DNA of 64,000 nucleotides. Origin: Gemmatimonadetes bacterium 13_2_20CM_2_65_7 (GTDB lineage: Bacteria > Gemmatimonadota > Gemmatimonadetes > Gemmatimonadales > GWC2-71-9). The stretch is from positions 1,132 to 65,131 of the forward strand of contig MNDR01000039.1 of NCBI GenBank assembly GCA_001915025.1. Reading direction: 5' to 3'. Every line of letters begins with the position of its first letter. Positions within the stretch are counted from its first letter, which is position 1. Positions 8,314 to 60,806 of this stretch are shown one piece after another. The position numbers and the translations under genes are program-made. A model generated the notes under the pieces. That model saw only the letters and a list, made by a program, of their open reading frames with translations, made no database searches and was not told the DNA's origin.

Positions 8314-9215
8314 CGGCCCAGCTTCGCCTCCCACTCTTCAAGCGAGCGAGGCCAGTCGGCTTTGAGCAGTCGTGAAAGCGAGCGATCGGCCAGCACGCGA
8401 CCGCCCGTCTGACACGTCGCGCAGTAGTTCGCCTCATTGTCGGCATAGCGAATGCGCTGTACGGGCGAGCCGCACACAGGGCAGGGCTGCTTGTAGCGTC
8501 CGTGCACCGCCATTCCTTCCTTGAACGCGCTCACTGTTTCGGGGAATTTTGTGCCCCCTCCGGTCTCGGCGCGCAGCTTCTCGATCCAAAAGCGTGCTGT
8601 CTTCTGCGTTGCCTCGTACAGCCGCGCGATTTCTTCGTCAGTCAATTTTCCGGAGAGCTGAAACAGCGAAAGCTTGGCCGCGTGCAGAATCTCATCAGAC
8701 AGCCAGTTGCCGATCCCATCGAACAGATGTGGATCGGTGAGCGCGCGCTTCAGCGTGTGGGACTCCGATTGCAGCCGAGTGCGGAAGGCATCGAGATCGG
8801 CGGCCAGCACGTCGAGCCCGCCGGGATCGTGGGCCGCGAGCCCGGCTTCGCCTTCCACCACGTGCAGCGATGCGCGGTGCTTCGGGCTCGCCTCGGTGAG
8901 GAGCAACGTCCCGGTTGGAAAATCAAATGAGGCGAGCCCGACTCTGGCCGGCGGGCTGGTTCCCTGCGGCCGCCATTTGAACCGGCCCGCGATCATCAGG
9001 TGGAAGATGAGGAAGACTCCTCCTTCCATCTCCCACACGATGCGTTTCCCGACGCGTCTGAGTCCGACGACCTTTCGGCCTTCTGCCGCGGCCAGCGGCG
9101 GGTCGACTGTGCGCAACAGAGAGGGGCTCGTGATGCGCGCGCGCTCGAGTCGCTGGCCGACGATTCGTGGGGCCAGCGCCTCGAGGTAGATTGTGATGTC
9201 GGGAAGCTCCGGCAT
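8310..9215 (-). CDS. Fpg/Nei family DNA glycosylase / AP lyase
   Basis: 301 aa with N-terminal MPELPD (catalytic Pro2/Glu3), an H2TH region, and a C-terminal zinc finger CPVCGSPVQRIRYADNEANYCATCQ. Confidence 0.85.
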   Translation of the reverse strand: MPELPDITIYLEALAPRIVGQRLERARITSPSLLRTVDPPLAAAEGRKVVGLRRVGKRIVWEMEGGVFLIFHLMIAGRFKWRPQGTSPPARVGLASFDFPTGTLLLTEASPKHRASLHVVEGEAGLAAHDPGGLDVLAADLDAFRTRLQSESHTLKRALTDPHLFDGIGNWLSDEILHAAKLSLFQLSGKLTDEEIARLYEATQKTARFWIEKLRAETGGGTKFPETVSAFKEGMAVHGRYKQPCPVCGSPVQRIRYADNEANYCATCQTGGRVLADRSLSRLLKADWPRSLEEWEAKLGR

Positions 9216-35019: not shown

Positions 35020-35897
35020 AGCGTCTCCTTCAGCCACGCGACCACGTTCGGCCAGCAGGACTGGCGCGCGCGGTCGGATAGCACCAGGCCACGATGCGTC
35101 AATCCCGGCTCGACCGCGAGCAGCTTGCGACGCGATCCGACGCGGTCGACGACCTGCCGGCACGCCGCTGGCGGCGCGAAGATCCGATCGGCGGTCCCCG
35201 CCACGCCAAGGTACGGGACGCTCACTGCCGCCAGGCCGCCAAAGTAGTCGAATCCATCCATCCCGAGCCACGCGCCGCGCACGTTCCACTCCATCCATTC
35301 GGCGATGATTTCCGCCGCCTCGTCTTCGTTGCCGAAGCGCAGCGCCCGCGCCGGGAAGCGACCCAACGCGCGCGACAGCGCAATCGTGGAGGCGGCGAGC
35401 GTCCTCCGTACGGGTCCGAGCCGGCGCGGGCCCGGCGTCCCGAGCGTGACGACCGCGGCAAGCGGAGCCGCCGCCGCAACGCGCGCCAGCCAGCACAGAC
35501 CCGCGGCGCCGCCTGCCGAGTGTCCGATCCACGCGAGTGGCGCGCCGTCGGTCTCTTCGCGCACGCGAGCAACCAATGTGGGCGTATCGTTCAGGACCCA
35601 ATCCTCGAACGTCCAGGCACCGCGTCGCGGTTCGCGCGCGCTTTCGCCATGATGTCGGAGATCGGCGAGCCAGACGTCCAGGCCCGCGGCGCCGAGGAAA
35701 TGGGCCATCCCCCCCATCCCCCCCATCCCCCCCATCCCCCCCATCCCTCCCGTGCCGTCTTCGGAGTGCAGCCAGAAGCGATGATTCGTGAAGGCGCCGT
35801 GGACCAGCAACACGGCGGGGCGGCCGTCTCGATAGGCGCGCATGCGATGCAGCGCCAGTTCCACGCCGTCGGGCGTGGAGATGAGGCGCGCCGTCAT
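35016..35897 (-). CDS. Alpha/beta hydrolase with in-frame (GMG)n insertion
   Basis: 293 aa with the HGAFTNHRFW oxyanion region and nucleophile elbow GHSAGG. The sequence GTGGMGGMGGMGGMGGMAH is encoded by the 9-bp repeat at 35707-35751. Confidence 0.8.
   Translation of the reverse strand: MTARLISTPDGVELALHRMRAYRDGRPAVLLVHGAFTNHRFWLHSEDGTGGMGGMGGMGGMGGMAHFLGAAGLDVWLADLRHHGESAREPRRGAWTFEDWVLNDTPTLVARVREETDGAPLAWIGHSAGGAAGLCWLARVAAAAPLAAVVTLGTPGPRRLGPVRRTLAASTIALSRALGRFPARALRFGNEDEAAEIIAEWMEWNVRGAWLGMDGFDYFGGLAAVSVPYLGVAGTADRIFAPPAACRQVVDRVGSRRKLLAVEPGLTHRGLVLSDRARQSCWPNVVAWLKETL
35707..35751. repeat. 9-bp tandem repeat (atccccccc x4 + atccctccc), in frame
   Basis: The 'a' residues fall at 35707, 35716, 35725, 35734 and 35743. 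On the coding (minus) strand this reads (atg ggg ggg)n, giving M-G-G repeats. Confidence 0.9.
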
Positions 35898-37162
35898 TCG
35901 TAGCGTCCCGCCGCGCGATAGGAGTCATCGAGCAGCTCGACCGGGTGACGCACGCGCGCCGGAACCCTGGCGGCCGCCAACCCAGCGCCGATTTGCATCA
36001 CGCAGCCGGGATTGCCGGTCGCGACGACCTGCGGCGCCGCGACTCGCAGCCGCTCGATCTTTGCCGCCAACACCGCGCGCGACATCTCCGGTTCGAGCAG
36101 TGTGAACAGCCCCGCGCTCCCGCAACACTCGGCGGCGCCGGGCACGTGCACGAGCTCGAGCAGCGGGATCGCCGCGAAGAGCTTCAGCGGCGGAACGGCG
36201 ACGCCTTGCGCGTGCAGGAGATGACACGGTGGATCGTACGCGACGTGCAGGTCGAGCGGGGCTCCCGGCACCGGTCCCTTGATCGCATCGCCGGCGAGGA
36301 GCTCGGTCACGTCGCGAACGCGCGCAGCGAGACGCTCGCATCGCTCGTCACCGAGGAGACGCCCGTACTCTTTCATCATGGCCCCACATCCGGCGCTGTT
36401 CACGACGATGGGTTCCTCGCCATCGCCGAATGCATCGACATTCTTGCGCGCCAGCTCGCGTGCCTCGTCGATCAATCCCGCGTGTGCATGCAGCGCACCA
36501 CAGCACCCCTGGCCCGAGACTTCGCGGACGTCGTAGCCGTTGATACCTAAGGTGCGCACGGTGGCATCGTGGACGTGGGAGAAGAGACCGTCTTGGACGC
36601 AGCCCCGGAATAACTGGACGGTAAGGGACGGTAAGGGACGGTAAGGGACGGTAGGAGTTATGCGCCTACCCTCACCGTCTCTTACCGTCCCATACCGTCT
36701 CTTACCGTCAGGTTTTGTCGCCGCCAGCATCCCCATGGCAAATCGGAATCTTCCCCAGCCAGCGAACAGTCGCGGGAGTCCGGTCGCTCTCAGCACGCGA
36801 GCGAACCAGTACACGACCGCACTCACTCCCGGCGTCGTCAGCGCCCAGAGCGCCATTCTCGCAAGGCGCGGAACGCCGCGAGCGGTGGTGAGTCGTGCGC
36901 GAGCCGCCTCGAGGCCATGGCCATACTGCACACCCGAAGGGCAGACGGGCTCGCAGCCGCGGCAGCCGAGACAGCGATCGAGGTGGTAGGCGAGCGCGGC
37001 ATCGTCGGCGGTCAGGTCGCCGCGCTCGAGGGCCCGCATCAGCTCGATGCGGCCGCGTGGTGAATCGGATTCATCTCCGGTGGCGAGGAACGTCGGGCAA
37101 GCTTGAAGACAGAAACCGCAATGCACGCATGCGTCCAGCCCTTCGAAGCCTCCTCGCGTCAT
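35894..37162 (-). CDS. glcF: Glycolate oxidase iron-sulfur subunit
   Basis: Start at MTRGGFEGLDACVHCGFCLQACPTF (ATG 37162, ATGA overlap). There is a second cluster motif CLGCRGCEPVCPSGV and two CCG-type domains (FRGCVQD..., PPCHLLHAQG...CCGSAG). Confidence 0.85.
   Translation of the reverse strand: MTRGGFEGLDACVHCGFCLQACPTFLATGDESDSPRGRIELMRALERGDLTADDAALAYHLDRCLGCRGCEPVCPSGVQYGHGLEAARARLTTARGVPRLARMALWALTTPGVSAVVYWFARVLRATGLPRLFAGWGRFRFAMGMLAATKPDGKRRYGTVRDGEGRRITPTVPYRPLPSLTVQLFRGCVQDGLFSHVHDATVRTLGINGYDVREVSGQGCCGALHAHAGLIDEARELARKNVDAFGDGEEPIVVNSAGCGAMMKEYGRLLGDERCERLAARVRDVTELLAGDAIKGPVPGAPLDLHVAYDPPCHLLHAQGVAVPPLKLFAAIPLLELVHVPGAAECCGSAGLFTLLEPEMSRAVLAAKIERLRVAAPQVVATGNPGCVMQIGAGLAAARVPARVRHPVELLDDSYRAAGRYE
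36614..36712. repeat. 99-bp imperfect palindrome inside glcF, arms of four GACGGTAAGG units
   Basis: The left arm 36614-36655 reads ctg(gacggtaagg)x3 gacggtagg. The right arm 36665-36712 is its reverse complement at about 85-90% unit identity, with a 9-nt loop agttatgcg. TTTT follows on the + strand. It encodes ...KPDGKRRYGTVRDGEGRRITPTVPYRPLPSLTVQ... in frame. Confidence 0.9.
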
Positions 37163-38367
37163 GAGCCTTCTGTGGCAACCACGAGCGCGCTGCCGGGATC
37201 GAACGTGCGGCGCAGTCCGGCTACGAGCGGGCCCACGCCTTCGCGATACGCGCCAAAGTGGCCGACGGCGCCGCGCAGCGGCCACGGCGCGCGCTCGAGC
37301 GTGAGCGGCACCTCGAGTCCCGCGAGCGTGCGGCGCAACCGCTGCAGCCGATCGATGGTGGCGTCGCCCGTCCACCGGATCGCGCCCGCCGCCGGCGACG
37401 CGGAGATCCATTCGTCGCCAAGCTGGTGTTGGAGCAGGTCGAGCAGCTCGTCGCTCGCCGACGGCACGCCGCCGATGCGGAACGTGACCGGCCGGACCGC
37501 AAATCCCTCGGCGAGACGCATCCAGAATGCGTGTGCCTCTTCAGCGCGCAGCGGCATGAACCGAGCGCCGCCACTCGCCGCTCTCAGCCCGGCCTCGTCG
37601 GCGGCAACCAGGGCCGGTGACCCGGCGAGTCGCACGCCGAGCACCCAGCGCTCGCGGCGGGCGAGCGCGGGTGAGACGAGCTCGAGGGCGGCCGGCGTGA
37701 GTCCGGCGGCCGCGATGTCTTCGCCAACCTGCGTGAGATCCTCGCGCGCACCCTCGAGCAGATAGGTGACGTCGGCGCGCGGCAGCGTGCGCAGTCGCAG
37801 GTGCACGAGGACGATGACGCCGAACGCGCCGAACCCGCCGGCCTGCAATCGTGTGAGATCGTAGCCCGCGACATTCTTCATCACTCGGCCGCCGCTCTGT
37901 ACCATGCGGCCATCGCCGGTCACGAACGTCACGCCCAGGAGATGATCTTTGATCGGACCGAAGCCATGTCGCAGCGGGCCGGCAGTCGCGGTGGCGACGA
38001 TGGAGCCAAGTGTGCGGCCCGCGAGGCCCGGCGGATCAATGCTCAGCCAGGCGCCGCGATCGGCGAGCTGTTGGCGCAGCTGGTCCAATCCGATTCCCGC
38101 TTCCGCCGTGGCGGTCAGATCCGCCGGTTCGACAGCGGGAATGCGGTCGAGCCGACGGGTGGTGAGTGCGAGGTCGGCGGGCGCGTCGCTCTGCAGCCAC
38201 GTGCCCGCCCCTTCGATGCGCACCCGCCAGCCTTCCTGATGGGCCGTGCCGAGCAGGAGTGCGACGGCGTCCGGAGATCCGGGAGCGATGCGGGGGACGC
38301 GGTCGGTGCTGGGCTCGAGGACGGCGCCTTCGCCCAACAAGGCGGTGACTTTCTCGAGGATGGTCAT
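37159..38367 (-). CDS. glcE: Glycolate oxidase FAD-binding subunit
   Basis: 402 aa with a PCMH-type FAD-binding domain, placed between glcD and glcF. ATGA overlaps occur at both ends. Confidence 0.75.
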   Translation of the reverse strand: MTILEKVTALLGEGAVLEPSTDRVPRIAPGSPDAVALLLGTAHQEGWRVRIEGAGTWLQSDAPADLALTTRRLDRIPAVEPADLTATAEAGIGLDQLRQQLADRGAWLSIDPPGLAGRTLGSIVATATAGPLRHGFGPIKDHLLGVTFVTGDGRMVQSGGRVMKNVAGYDLTRLQAGGFGAFGVIVLVHLRLRTLPRADVTYLLEGAREDLTQVGEDIAAAGLTPAALELVSPALARRERWVLGVRLAGSPALVAADEAGLRAASGGARFMPLRAEEAHAFWMRLAEGFAVRPVTFRIGGVPSASDELLDLLQHQLGDEWISASPAAGAIRWTGDATIDRLQRLRRTLAGLEVPLTLERAPWPLRGAVGHFGAYREGVGPLVAGLRRTFDPGSALVVATEGS

Positions 38368-39866
38368 GGAACAGGCTCTAATGTGGAATGCGAAATGGGA
38401 AATGCGGAATTGAACTGTCGATCGTCATTTCGCATTCCGAATTTCGCACTTCGAATTGATGTCCACTCCCGGCACGCGTGCACCGGTACCACCTTGCCGG
38501 GGTTCACCCGTTCTTTCGGATCGAACACCCGCCGCACCGCCTGCATTGCACCCAGAGACTCCGGATCGAAGATGAGCGGCATGTAGCGCAGCTTGTCGAT
38601 GCCCACGCCATGCTCGCCCGTGATCGTACCACCGGCGGCGATGCATGTCGACATGATCTCCGCGCTCGCGGCTTCGACGCGTTGTTTGAGCGCCGGATCG
38701 GTGGCATCGAACGAAATATTGGGATGCAGATTGCCGTCACCCGCGTGAAAGACGTTGCTGACGACGAGGTCATACCGTTTCGCGATTGTGCAAATCGTTT
38801 CGAGAACCTGCGGGAGCGCGGAGCGCGGCACCACGGCGTCCTGCACGACCAGGTCGCGCGACAGTCGTCCCATGGCGCCGAACGCCTTCTTGCGTCCCTG
38901 CCACAGTCGCTCGCGCTCCGCTTCGCTCGCGGCAATGCGCACCGAGCGCGCGCCCGATTTCCGCAGCAGCTCGGCAACCGCCTCGGTCTCCGCGATGACG
39001 CCGGCCTCGTTGCGGCCGTCCAGCTCCACGAGCAGGACGGCGGCGGCATCGCGCGGATACCCCGCCGCATACACAGAATCCTCGACGGCGGCGATGCAGG
39101 ATTGATCCATCATCTCGAGGGCCGCCGGCACGATGCCGGCGGCGATGATCGCGGAGACTGCTTCACCTGCCGTCCGCAGTCCATTGAAGTCCGCGAGCAT
39201 CGTTCGCACCGCGCGTGGCAGCGGCGTCAGACGCACGGTGATTTTCGTGGCGATGCCGAAGTTTCCCTCGGAACCCACGAACAGCCCGACGAGATCGGGA
39301 CCCCACGGCTCGCCGCCGGGGCTCCCGCTTTCCACCATCGTGCCGTCGGCGAGCAATAGCTCGAGCGCGAGCACGTGATTCGCGGTGACGCCGTACTTGA
39401 GACAGTGTGGCCCGCCGGCGTTCTCGGCCACGTTCCCGCCGATCGTGCAGGCGCTCTGGCTCGAGGGATCGGGCGCGTACTGCAATCCGTGTGGCTGTGC
39501 CGCTGCGCTCAGCTTCGCGTTCACGACGCCGGGCTCCACGATCGCTGCACGGTTGCCAGCATCCATCTTGAGAATCCGATTCAACCGTGTCAGCACGATC
39601 AGAACGGAGCCTTCATCTGCTAGCGCGCCGCCCGAGAGACCAGTCCCCGCGCCGCGCGGCACGAACGGAACGTCGTGCGCAGCGAGCAGACGCACGACCG
39701 CGATCAATTCTTCGCGAGTACCCGGAAGAACTACGAGATCGGGAAGGCGGCGATGAGTGGGAAGCCCGTCCATCGAGTATGTGACGCGCTCCGCGCGAGC
39801 TTCGCGAACGTGCCGAGCTCCAACAATAGAAGCGAGGTCCGGAGCCAGGTGAGAAAGCGAGGACAT
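38364..39866 (-). CDS. glcD: Glycolate oxidase subunit GlcD (FAD-linked oxidase)
   Basis: Carries FAD-linked oxidase motifs (VPFVPRGAGTGLSGGAL ... HAGDGNLHPNI ... GTITGEHGVGIDK). ATG 39866 (MSSLSHLAPDL) is preferred because the tracked TTG 39923 would overlap the upstream terminator hairpin. Confidence 0.85.
   Translation of the reverse strand: MSSLSHLAPDLASIVGARHVREARAERVTYSMDGLPTHRRLPDLVVLPGTREELIAVVRLLAAHDVPFVPRGAGTGLSGGALADEGSVLIVLTRLNRILKMDAGNRAAIVEPGVVNAKLSAAAQPHGLQYAPDPSSQSACTIGGNVAENAGGPHCLKYGVTANHVLALELLLADGTMVESGSPGGEPWGPDLVGLFVGSEGNFGIATKITVRLTPLPRAVRTMLADFNGLRTAGEAVSAIIAAGIVPAALEMMDQSCIAAVEDSVYAAGYPRDAAAVLLVELDGRNEAGVIAETEAVAELLRKSGARSVRIAASEAERERLWQGRKKAFGAMGRLSRDLVVQDAVVPRSALPQVLETICTIAKRYDLVVSNVFHAGDGNLHPNISFDATDPALKQRVEAASAEIMSTCIAAGGTITGEHGVGIDKLRYMPLIFDPESLGAMQAVRRVFDPKERVNPGKVVPVHACREWTSIRSAKFGMRNDDRQFNSAFPISHSTLEPVP
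38385..38458. repeat. 74-bp imperfect palindrome in the 3' tail of glcD, arms of four GGAATGC-like 7-mers
   Basis: The left arm is ggaatgc gaaatgg gaaatgc ggaattg (38385-38412). The right arm is catttcg cattccg aatttcg cacttcg aattg (38426-38458). In one register 38385-38397 pairs perfectly (13 bp) with 38426-38438. In another register a 24-nt imperfect stem forms. It encodes ...EWTSIRSAKFGMRNDDRQFNSAFPISH... before the ATGA junction with glcE. Confidence 0.85.
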
Positions 39867-39902
39867 GCTATATACTAGATGTACAGGCACACCGCGGTAA
39901 AC

Positions 39903-39942
39903 AGTCAAAAGGGGCCGGGACAATCCTGCATGTCCCGACCCC
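39903..39942 (-). terminator. Rho-independent terminator of the sigma factor gene
   Basis: The minus-strand RNA is GGGGUCGGGACA-UGCAGGAU-UGUCCCGGCCCC followed by UUUUGACU, an 11/12-bp stem. Confidence 0.8.
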
Positions 39943-59767: not shown

Positions 59768-60752
59768 GGTCGAACGCGCGGTCGACGACATTCGCCGCAG
59801 ATGGGTGCCGGACGGCCGGCTCGGCGTCTTCGAGGTCTCCCTCCTGCCGAAGGGTGTCACAGGCGTGACCTCGAGTCGCGACGCGCGCGATGCGCTGCGG
59901 CGACTTGCCGGTGAACAGGAGCTGGTCGAGCAGGTGCGTCTGCTGCCGGACGAGACCGTCACCGACGCCGCCGCCATCGTCACCGCAGCACTGGCGCCGC
60001 TGCTCGACGCTCCGCAGCTGTCCGCGCCGCGCGTCAACGAAGCGCTGCACGGCGAATCACTCGATGTCCTGGAGCGCCGCGACGACTGGCTGCGCGTGCG
60101 CGCGCCCGACGGCTACGTCGCGTGGACCCACGCCGGCTATGTAGCGACGGGCGCGACGGATTGGGCGGACGATTGGCGCGAGCGCGCAACCGCGCGATCG
60201 CTGAGCGCCGACATTGTAACGACCTACAGCCGGCGTCGCCTTCCCACTGGCGCGCGCGTCGCGTTGCGGCGTGGGGTGGTAGAGCTTGCCGATGGGCTGG
60301 AGGGCGCCGTGGCCGGCGGCTACGTCCGCCGGGAGCAGGAGCTGCGCGCGGAAGCGCGGCACCTCGCGTTGCCCGAGCTCGCGCTCAAGTGGTTTTCCGG
60401 CGCGCCATATCTGTGGGGTGGCCGCACGGAGTGGGGCATCGATTGCTCGGGACTCGCGCAGGCGGTGTACGCGGCACGCGGCATTCGGCTGCCGCGCGAC
60501 AGCGATCAGCAATTCGTTGAGGGAAAGGAGCTCGCGATCGCCGCGGACGGGAAAGGCTACGAAGCGGGCGATCTGCTCTTCTTTGCTGAACGCGGTCGAG
60601 TCTCTCACGTCGCGTTGTGGTCCGGGGCTGGGCACGTCGTGCATGCCGCGCTCTCGCGTGGCGGCGTCGCCTCCGACCATTTGTTCGGTGATGAACCGCG
60701 CATGAGACGGCTGCGGGAAATTCTGGTGGGTGTGAGGCGGTTCGGCGGTTAA
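59760..60752 (+). CDS. C40 (NlpC/P60) peptidase with N-terminal SH3b-like domains
   Basis: The catalytic region is YLWGGRTEWGIDCSGLAQAVY...GDLLFF...SHVALW, giving a Cys/His pair. Overlaps the upstream gene by 8 nt. Confidence 0.8.
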   Translation: MDKVERAVDDIRRRWVPDGRLGVFEVSLLPKGVTGVTSSRDARDALRRLAGEQELVEQVRLLPDETVTDAAAIVTAALAPLLDAPQLSAPRVNEALHGESLDVLERRDDWLRVRAPDGYVAWTHAGYVATGATDWADDWRERATARSLSADIVTTYSRRRLPTGARVALRRGVVELADGLEGAVAGGYVRREQELRAEARHLALPELALKWFSGAPYLWGGRTEWGIDCSGLAQAVYAARGIRLPRDSDQQFVEGKELAIAADGKGYEAGDLLFFAERGRVSHVALWSGAGHVVHAALSRGGVASDHLFGDEPRMRRLREILVGVRRFGG

Positions 60753-60806
60753 GCGGTTAGGCGGTTCGAGATGCCGCCCGCCTAACCGCCCAACCGCTTA
60801 ACCGCC
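60736..60806. repeat. 71-bp imperfect palindrome of four GGCGGTTA units per arm, at the 3' end of the C40 peptidase gene
   Basis: The left arm is ggcggttc ggcggtta agcggtta ggcggttc (60736-60768). The right arm is ccgcccg cctaaccg cccaaccg cttaaccg cc (60774-60806), with about 26/32 complementarity. tatttta follows on the + strand, so it could be the intrinsic terminator of this operon. The stop codon TAA 60750-60752 lies inside the left arm. Confidence 0.85.

Follow-up and report, generated by a model that had tools for sequence, protein, structure and literature searches.

Why does glcD, the gene for the FAD-linked glycolate oxidase subunit D, end in a translated palindrome placed just before its stop-start overlap with glcE? 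We addressed this question in a 64-kb stretch of DNA from Gemmatimonadetes bacterium 13_2_20CM_2_65_7 (the window, by which we mean all 64,000 nt analysed), where glcD, glcE and glcF are all encoded on the minus strand. The explanation that we favour, with a probability of about 0.68, is that the element at the end of glcD is a repeat resembling a repetitive extragenic palindrome (REP) or a miniature transposable element with inverted repeats (MITE), lodged in a permissive slot and filtered for reading frame by the overlap with glcE. The parts of the junction are the following.

38364..39923, minus strand: glcD as an open reading frame (ORF); the likelier start is M20, the ATG at 39866
38364..39866, minus strand: glcD from the likely start; matches PRK11230 and TIGR00387 (1e-148 and 1e-141, below the curated cut-offs) and PDB 9qgz (3e-88)
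38364..38471, minus strand: GlcD C-terminal tail after ...VHAC, that is REW, 32 residues and the stop (108 nt); ancestral length 30 nt
38380..38457, minus strand: palindromic repeat of 78 bp with heptamer arms, of the AA subfamily (unit AATGCGR), read in the glcD frame as ...SIRSAKFGMRNDDRQFNSAFPISHST...
38427..38457, minus strand: 5' arm on the mRNA, AATTCGA AGTGCGA AATTCGG AATGCGA AAT(G)
38411..38426, minus strand: loop of about 14-16 nt, where orthologues differ most (variable in 11 of 14 columns)
38380..38410, minus strand: 3' arm on the mRNA, AATTCCG CATTTCC CATTTCG CATTCCA CATT
38364..38367, minus strand: ATGA, in which glcD stops and glcE starts (ATGA or GTGA in all genus species examined)

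The palindrome at the end of glcD

A preliminary description of this DNA had placed a palindrome at 38385-38458, with a perfect 13-bp stem, and an ATGA shared by the two genes. The stem was exact: GGAATGCGAAATG at 38385-38397 has its perfect reverse complement at 38426-38438. The overlap was equally accurate, the glcD stop and the glcE start sharing 38364-38367, and the palindrome itself is real and extends to an AT-rich, imperfect one of 78 bp at 38380-38457, whose 31-nt arms (38380-38410 and 38427-38457) are 74% complementary and enclose a 16-nt loop. Each arm holds about four tandem AATGCGR heptamers, mirrored in the other arm, and the 7-nt periodicity is visible as 14-nt direct repeats in both. 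We set the boundaries by aligning paralogues and by comparison with 30-nt 'empty' tails, using also the inverted repeat, the 14-nt direct repeats and the genome matches. The element ends in AATGCG...CGCATT, and CGTC is present only within the loop consensus.

Compositionally, the element stands apart, with a GC content of 0.42-0.45 (about 0.43) against 0.65-0.75 in the flanks and 0.65 genome-wide. It begins 14 nt into the GlcD tail, ends 16 nt short of the ATGA, supplies the last 26 codons of glcD and is free of stops in four of the six reading frames. Only three loci of the window have perfect inverted 13-mers separated by no more than 60 nt, while first-order Markov simulations predict a mean of 0.4 such pairs. 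Besides the glcD element, perfect inverted repeats reaching 13 bp or more comprise only a palindrome of GGCGGTTA-type tandem units at 60744-60806 and a GC-rich stem, TCGGGCTCGCCTC...GAGGCGAGCCCGA, at 8882-8941. The predicted RNA fold of 116 nt around the element has a free energy of -33.6 kcal/mol (z = -2.2 against dinucleotide shuffles).

GlcD does not reach the curated NCBIfam cut-offs (495 bits for PRK11230, cut-off 897; 472 for TIGR00387, cut-off 568), and the name is supported at the family level by the gene order glcD-glcE-glcF and by the 3e-88 match to a solved glycolate oxidase. Of the 519 residues, the curated GlcD profiles match no further than 477-490, and the solved glycolate oxidase closest to this protein stops five residues past the NPGKV motif, so that the GlcD tail of about 30 residues is an extra appendage. 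A conserved core followed by an extra tail is thus what had been described, except that conservation runs three residues further, to ...HACREW.

A dispersed repeat family

The organism and the relatives used for comparison are soil Gemmatimonadales known from metagenome-assembled genomes (all genomes are of this kind; that of the window, G000, is 82% complete, and the other G numbers denote relatives). A search with the 91 nt around the element returned four other full-length loci in G000, at 76-80% identity, and many partial matches, and a profile built from five copies raised this to about 15 AA-type loci. Around 30 copies aligned from G000, G012 and G004 have sharp ends (AATGCG...CGCATT) inside unrelated flanks, four units per arm and loops of 13-45 nt; the four-unit arm holds for the glcD copy and for nearly all aligned copies from G000, G012, G004, G018 and G017. 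By these alignments the glcD-end element is shown to be a member of a dispersed, evidently non-coding Gemmatimonadales family, a membership that the preliminary description, correct as to the element, had missed.

What separates the subfamilies found in relatives is how the unit begins, its first two letters being changed. G018 has over 50 loci of the AT subfamily (ATTGCGG), which reach 93% identity with the copy in its own glcD tail. In G017, G023, G020 and G007 the CG subfamily (CGTGCGG) accounts for tens of loci; its single match in G000 (E = 0.78) is not credible. Copy numbers are very uneven among the 50 genus genomes: exact two-unit AA matches number 19 in G000 and 0-53 across its 49 congeners, and AT matches 120 in G018 and 0-30 elsewhere. 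The corresponding CG census, which allowed one mismatch and used a rotation of the same unit as control, is noisy in a GC-rich genome and serves only qualitatively.

Within G000 most copies border co-directional ORFs, either at an ORF end or between two of them, with no orientation preference relative to the genes, and several unrelated spellings coexist (AA and AT, units of the TGATCA type and, in glcF, a decamer). Individual sites illustrate the range of contexts. An AA-type element at C82:5085-5198 is read in frame inside an asparaginase-II-like gene (...NAKFAMRNAE...FRISHSAFRI... / ...LANAKFAMRNAELNGELDEANEPSDTFRISHSAFRIVEG...), at a site of about 40 nt in G004 and G017 against about 133 in G000, and a half-element lies inside a MutY-like gene. 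The element at C98:6173-6262 spans the junction of two LptF/LptG-like permease genes and carries their ATGA stop-start overlap in its loop, its two arms thus coding for the C-terminal tail of one protein and the N-terminus of the next. Between rplB and rpsS (C50:13138-13223) an element is present in G000 and G012 and absent in G047, G017 and G004 (nearly so in G018); in G047 and G017, rplB runs into rpsS through a TAATG overlap, and the filled alleles have a new 12-18-nt spacer restoring the rpsS start. Finally, an AT-spelled element lies between tRNA genes at C77:13746-13836, and the same spacer of G017 holds an AA-spelled one.

The glcD/glcE junction across species

Our comparison of the junction took in 37 genus species and, from a wider sampling of Gemmatimonadales, 77 loci. 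Within the genus, the tail after ...HACREW measures between 30 and 234 nt, and its contents fall into five groups.

AA-type hairpin (9 species): G000, G004, G012, G022, G042, G043, G050, G056, G057
AT-type hairpin (3 species): G018, G024, G049
CG-type hairpin (6 species): G007, G011 (48-nt remnant), G017, G020, G023, G046
Classical REP hairpins, CCCCGGG... (9 species): G002, G003, G013, G019, G045, G047, G051, G055, G061
Short tail of at most 48 nt with no recognisable insert (10 species): the remaining genus species

The tail has 30 nt in the order's other families, as in the genus members where it is shortest, and the more distant Gemmatimonadales sampled have tails mostly of 21-54 nt. This comparison shows 30 nt to be the ancestral state, relative to which the element was inserted; the earlier view of an element at an intercistronic position is supported. 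Arms spelled AGTGCGG and AACGCGG occupy the same junction in other genera. In two tails, of 234 nt in G003 (locus L029) and 168 nt in locus L147, two CCCCGGG-type REP hairpins bracket in-frame tandem repeats that code for a (GGLGGPGG)n-like peptide.

Whatever the content, the way in which the tail ends hardly changes. In all 37 genus species, translation of the tail in frame first meets a stop at the TGA of the overlap with glcE, spelled ATGA or GTGA, and in the wider sample an NTGA stop-start overlap closes the tail in 73 of 77 loci. The preliminary description had noted that the frame is kept open across the element in this one genome; aligned junctions show frame and overlap to be preserved in every genus species read. 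The same text had raised the case of a tail conserved as protein where the DNA symmetry is lacking. Relatives without the palindrome have short, unrelated tails (REWASRAVA-like), and tail peptides are alike only where the DNA palindrome is present.

Selection on the peptide and on the DNA

In eight AA orthologues with 108-nt tails, the variable columns of the element are spread over codon positions 1, 2 and 3 as 10, 11 and 13, and differing codons are nonsynonymous in 303 cases and synonymous in 99. In glcE, the identity at the three positions is about 0.95, 0.99 and 0.58. Since substitutions in the tail are even over codon positions, unlike those of glcE, the tail peptide is not under selection, and the tail is shown, by these substitution patterns, to be free of constraint at the protein level. 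AlphaFold gives the tail the lowest confidence of the whole model (predicted local distance difference test, pLDDT, 29-34), which is weak evidence only because the model is poor overall (mean pLDDT 64, 24 sequences); the 26-residue appendage is probably disordered.

The pairing of the arms is kept. Stem columns co-vary across subfamilies (AA:UU, CG:CG, AU:UA), and nine of 18 predicted pairs stay paired through two-sided changes (AU to CG, GC or UA), a count that compares in part subfamilies and not strict orthologues. What is constrained is the arms, as DNA or as RNA, throughout the family and not at glc in particular.

Turnover of the slot contents

To follow the slot through time we used a nucleotide tree of glcE and most of glcF (as far as the loci reach), in which deep nodes are weak and only well-supported sister pairs were considered; a GlcD plus GlcE protein tree was unresolved and was replaced by nucleotide trees. 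G000 (AA, 108 nt) is sister to G047, whose tail carries a REP (93 nt), and the flanks of the two are 93-97% identical right up to the insert. The flanks of G000 are only 77-88% identical to those of G004, the genome with the most similar AA copy. The flanks of G000 thus resemble G047 and not G004 up to the insert, which limits the swap to the insert itself, and import of the AA insert by recombination from a G004-like donor was rejected on the same figures. Other sister pairs differ likewise, G019 (REP) from G046 (CG) and G051 (REP) from G052 (36 nt), and one tight clade holds G012 (AA), G055 (REP) and G021 (39 nt). The sisters G050 and G056 are set apart by a 21-nt deletion, of exactly three units.

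The same picture is obtained away from glc. At eight other element-bearing slots of G000, G047 is precisely empty at two, much shorter and without the AA element at two, filled at two by copies spelled otherwise (arms TGATCAA and GGGATGC) and of AA type with 21 nt less at one; the remaining locus was not found. At those eight slots G017 has mostly CG-type copies and G018 AT-type ones. Taken together, the comparisons show that slot content is replaced fast between species, and the sister-species data favour replacement of whole elements at fixed slots.

We also considered the loops as orthology markers, with arms rewritten around a conserved loop, given that the junction copies of G004 (AA) and G017 (CG) have near-identical loops. 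The loops do not serve as such markers, since paralogues share a short-loop consensus, about GAAMTGSAAGCGTC. Across 10 orthologous slots with different arm types a permutation test gave no excess of loop similarity (p = 0.29), a result that, with synonymous sites saturated, does not separate change in place from replacement. No target-site duplication was seen between filled and empty alleles of site 1 (C87), site 4 (C50) or the glcD tail, and no target motif is visible at the slots compared. The family searches in G000 found no longer element with these arms that could be a parent insertion sequence, although no systematic search for one was made.

The downstream gene glcF provides a second slot in the same operon, and the neighbouring genes are as follows.

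37159..38367, minus strand: glcE; NCBIfam PRK11282, 5e-38, below the curated cut-off
35894..37162, minus strand: glcF; starts at an ATGA overlap with glcE and has its own in-frame repeat-armed palindrome at 36614-36712

The glcF palindrome has GACGGTAAGR decamer arms and lies between FAMGMLAAT and LFRGCV of GlcF. In nearly every genus species examined this slot holds a repeat-armed palindrome with units of its own: the decamer in G000, GTTGGAA in G047, AA in G004, CG in G017 and GGGCGGN-like units in others. Downstream of glcF, an alpha/beta-hydrolase ORF at about 35700-35750 of the window has a (GGM)5 run in its translation, encoded by a 9-bp tandem repeat.

Proposed mechanism and alternative explanations

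Mechanistically, we propose that the few codons (about 20 nt) between ...HACREW and the ATGA overlap form a permissive slot which would receive a repeat copy. Ribosomes presumably must reach the ATGA for coupled initiation of glcE, and an insert would survive only if its length in nt is divisible by 3 and it adds no stop to the glcD frame. The hairpin would then be translated as a by-product, giving GlcD an unselected appendage of 26 residues. Heptamer inserts have no intrinsic reason to come in multiples of 3 nt or to leave a frame open, and the uniform overlap therefore points to a filter. Translational coupling is established behaviour at 4-nt stop-start overlaps, and we infer that the filter is termination-reinitiation coupling at this one. 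The element itself would be selfish or structural and not a regulator specific to glc.

Several observations weigh against this explanation. About 70% of the genus species have some hairpin-forming insert at the glcD slot, and a hairpin could be favoured there. Over its 78 nt, the element is on average 83% identical between AA orthologues (up to 95%), compared with 55% at the 4-fold sites of glcE in the same pairs, so its DNA is not drifting neutrally; something constrains it, be it a requirement on the hairpin or sequence, homogenisation among copies or recent spread. With no transposase link, target duplication or target motif, the term 'mobile element' is drawn from the distribution only. 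In addition, the translational coupling of glcD and glcE is deduced from the 4-nt overlap.

A further proposal, which we hold tentatively and consider less likely to be right than wrong, concerns how the slots change. At fixed slots of Gemmatimonadales genomes (junctions, linkers and protein tails), tandem-arm hairpins would be repeatedly and precisely replaced by other spellings through a hitherto unrecognised, structure-directed copy-and-replace machinery; replacement would take place within about 5% divergence and leave no footprint or target duplication, the new spelling often following the abundant type of the genome. The tRNA-spacer element, AT in G000 and AA in G017, is an exception to this last point. 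If true, spread would depend on a hairpin-specific nuclease or transposase, or on template switching between palindromes, and not on ordinary transposition followed by selection, and the in-frame copies would be by-products in essential genes.

Among the alternatives to the frame-filtered repeat, the one that survives best, though we find it unlikely, takes the hairpin as a selected cis-acting RNA structure which slows or gates ribosomes at the ATGA, or blocks 3'-5' decay, and so sets the GlcD:GlcE:GlcF stoichiometry. REP hairpins do set stoichiometry in some enterobacterial operons. A heptamer palindrome or REP is present at the glcD slot in about 27 of the 37 genus species, and tails above 60 nt are predicted to fold at -20 to -128 kcal/mol, against -1 to -31 for shorter ones. 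Further, the arms are conserved well above synonymous sites, their pairing survives double changes, and in the minimum-free-energy fold the AU of the glcE AUG is paired at the base of the extended helix. However, ten genus species and most of the distant Gemmatimonadales have tails of at most 54 nt with no recognisable insert and weaker predicted folds, and the filling of the slot differs between sister species. The family also occurs at tRNA spacers, between rplB and rpsS, at the LptF/G-like junction and inside the asparaginase-like gene, with no preferred orientation relative to genes; in view of these unrelated contexts, arm conservation is a property of the family and not of glc. The suggestion of the preliminary description that the hairpin modulates glcD/glcE coupling or mRNA stability is not supported, in view of these contexts, of the roughly 10 of 37 species and most of the more distant Gemmatimonadales sampled that have no recognisable element, and of the sister with a different one. 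A regulatory role for the glcD hairpin is possible; it is not needed, since many congeners have no recognisable insert and sisters differ.

Improbable, in our estimate, is a second alternative in which some abundant protein that binds DNA or RNA, be it a nucleoid protein or a global regulator, recognises the heptamer arrays, the glcD copy being one of many such sites, and their spellings co-evolve with it, as proposed for Geobacter look-alikes by Aklujkar et al. 2009 (PMC2700814). It would account for the design of every copy, in which four units in phase face four more on the opposite strand, for a sequence conservation above neutral and for a dominant spelling particular to each genome. The slot type also tends to follow the abundant one, G018 having an AT junction and 120 AT matches, and G017 a CG junction and CG-type copies in several of its orthologous slots. 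Yet there are exceptions (G043 has an AA junction and more AT than AA matches, and the tRNA slot has already been mentioned), several unrelated spellings coexist in G000, a 7-bp phasing sets successive sites on different faces of the helix, and no candidate protein was identified.

Lastly, that the tail is a functional extension of GlcD (a contact with GlcE or GlcF, or a membrane anchor) with an incidental DNA symmetry is hardly credible: the frame is open and nine genus species have a similar peptide (..RNAKFGMRND..FNSAFHISHSALEPVP), but all three codon positions are hit equally by substitutions, nonsynonymous codon differences outnumber synonymous ones 3:1, the peptide is missing or replaced by unrelated sequence in sister species, any copy of the repeat yields these motifs when translated in that frame (as in the asparaginase-like and MutY-like proteins), and the structural model is least confident here.

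Comparison with known repeat classes

By its sequence organisation, the element can be placed in the class of heptamer-armed hairpins of the Xanthomonas and Geobacter type: its units are in tandem and of about 7 nt, with about four per array, the arms converge, and the copies are dispersed, mostly at co-directional junctions. The Xanthomonas GGGAATC and Nostoc GGGGAYT heptameric repeats occupy about 185 dispersed loci per genome (Rehm et al. 2015, PMC4692102). In Xanthomonas, 70-75 pairs of arrays per genome are convergent and could form stem-loops, four units are preferred, spacers between co-directional ORFs near stop and start codons are favoured, and 7-11% of the repeats are intragenic; 83% of the positions are common to two related species, and the unit is the same in Xcc and Xac (PMC4692102). 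Our element has the unit letters GGAAT and the convergent heptamer arrays between co-directional ORFs in common with the Xanthomonas GGGAATC repeat. In contrast to it, the spelling in the glcD family varies by species and slot (AA, AT, CG, AG, AAC and unrelated units), the glcD copy is translated in frame as a C-terminus before a stop-start overlap, and copies are fewer in Gemmatimonadales (about 15-60 elements). The G-quadruplex interpretation put forward for the Xanthomonas and Nostoc repeats was rejected here, since AATGCGR / GGAATGC offers at most GG, with no G3 tract, and the mRNA strand of the glcD copy is almost without GG tracts.

In Geobacter metallireducens, paired tandem-repeat sites have been annotated as 'putative global regulator binding sites' of classes 1-4 and as Gmet_H4 (Aklujkar et al. 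2009, PMC2700814). These arrays consist of three to five tandem units of 7-9 nt, mostly as opposite-strand pairs at a variable distance, in tens of copies between or within genes and in several unrelated spellings, and are known from annotation only (PMC2700814). The present family differs in phylum and in units, and that study reported neither a comparison of slots across species nor an in-frame tail before an overlap (PMC2700814).

The REPs, with their derivatives the bacterial interspersed mosaic elements (BIME) and REPINs and the REP-associated tyrosine transposases (RAYT, of the Y1 type), have been described in detail (Nunvar 2010, PMC2817692; Ton-Hoang 2012, PMC3333891; Nunvar 2013, PMC3686654). 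Like them, the heptamer-armed elements are short, dispersed, intercistronic palindromes with a species-specific consensus and very uneven copy numbers among close relatives. Unlike REPs, which are palindromes of 20-40 bp, they measure 78-115 bp, have periodic arms, carry no terminal GTAG/CGTC tag and have no Y1 gene at their flanks. Y1_Tnp genes are present in G000, G018, G017 and G014, and none has a heptamer array within about 1.5 kb. In G018, three classical CCCCGGG-type REPs (TGACCCCGGG...CCCGGGGTCA; ACCCCGGGC..GCCCGGGGTCA) adjoin a RAYT-like Y1_Tnp gene at about 1288-1453 of contig C354 (locus L063), and this REP type fills the glcD slot in G047, G061, G019 and G003. A link between RAYTs and the heptamer elements was rejected, as the Y1 genes are not flanked by heptamer arrays and one is flanked by classical REPs. 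Compared with a MITE, terminal inverted repeats are present (the whole arms) and a flanking target-site duplication is absent.

Translated palindromes have precedents. Rickettsia palindromic elements (RPE), of about 100 bp, lie in frame in housekeeping genes and are tolerated as extra peptides (Ogata et al. 2000, as summarised in PMC10969869 and PMC3184786), and repeats that lengthen the 3' ends of genes are on record (Delihas 2007, as cited in PMC3184786). The resemblance to RPEs, an in-frame palindrome in coding genes (glcD and the asparaginase-like gene), is functional only: the phylum is another one, RPEs have no tandem-unit arms and their peptides are conserved within the family, whereas the glcD tail peptide is unselected. 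Mycobacterial interspersed repetitive units (MIRUs) are intercistronic operon repeats whose small ORFs overlap the flanking stop and start codons (Supply et al. 1997, as cited in PMC3184786). As in MIRUs, translation runs through the glcD element across a stop-start; MIRUs, however, are direct tandem repeats of 40-100 bp with separate mini-ORFs and not hairpins that extend the upstream protein. In Rfam, the only match was a sub-threshold one to a miRNA precursor (E = 0.12), which we regard as noise.

The architecture is already known from Xanthomonas, Nostoc and Geobacter, where it has been catalogued without an accepted function or mechanism of spread. New here are a unit without G-tracts, spellings specific to species and slot, replacement between sister species, and a translated copy that keeps a stop-start overlap.

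Implications

For the glc operon itself little changes: GlcD bears a dispensable-looking appendage of 26 residues, and annotation should not call the tail a conserved domain. The junction, on the other hand, amounts to a natural experiment: among the more than 60 Gemmatimonadales species compared, those with an insert have taken up several differently spelled heptamer hairpins and REPs in a single slot of about 20 nt. The inserts have always kept the frame and nearly always the 4-nt overlap, which indicates how strong a filter overlap coupling would impose on insertions, and the same junction shows how fast the heptamer-hairpin class turns over. Slots of this kind, at which close relatives have the element, lack it or have another in its place, are material for working out how these elements spread.

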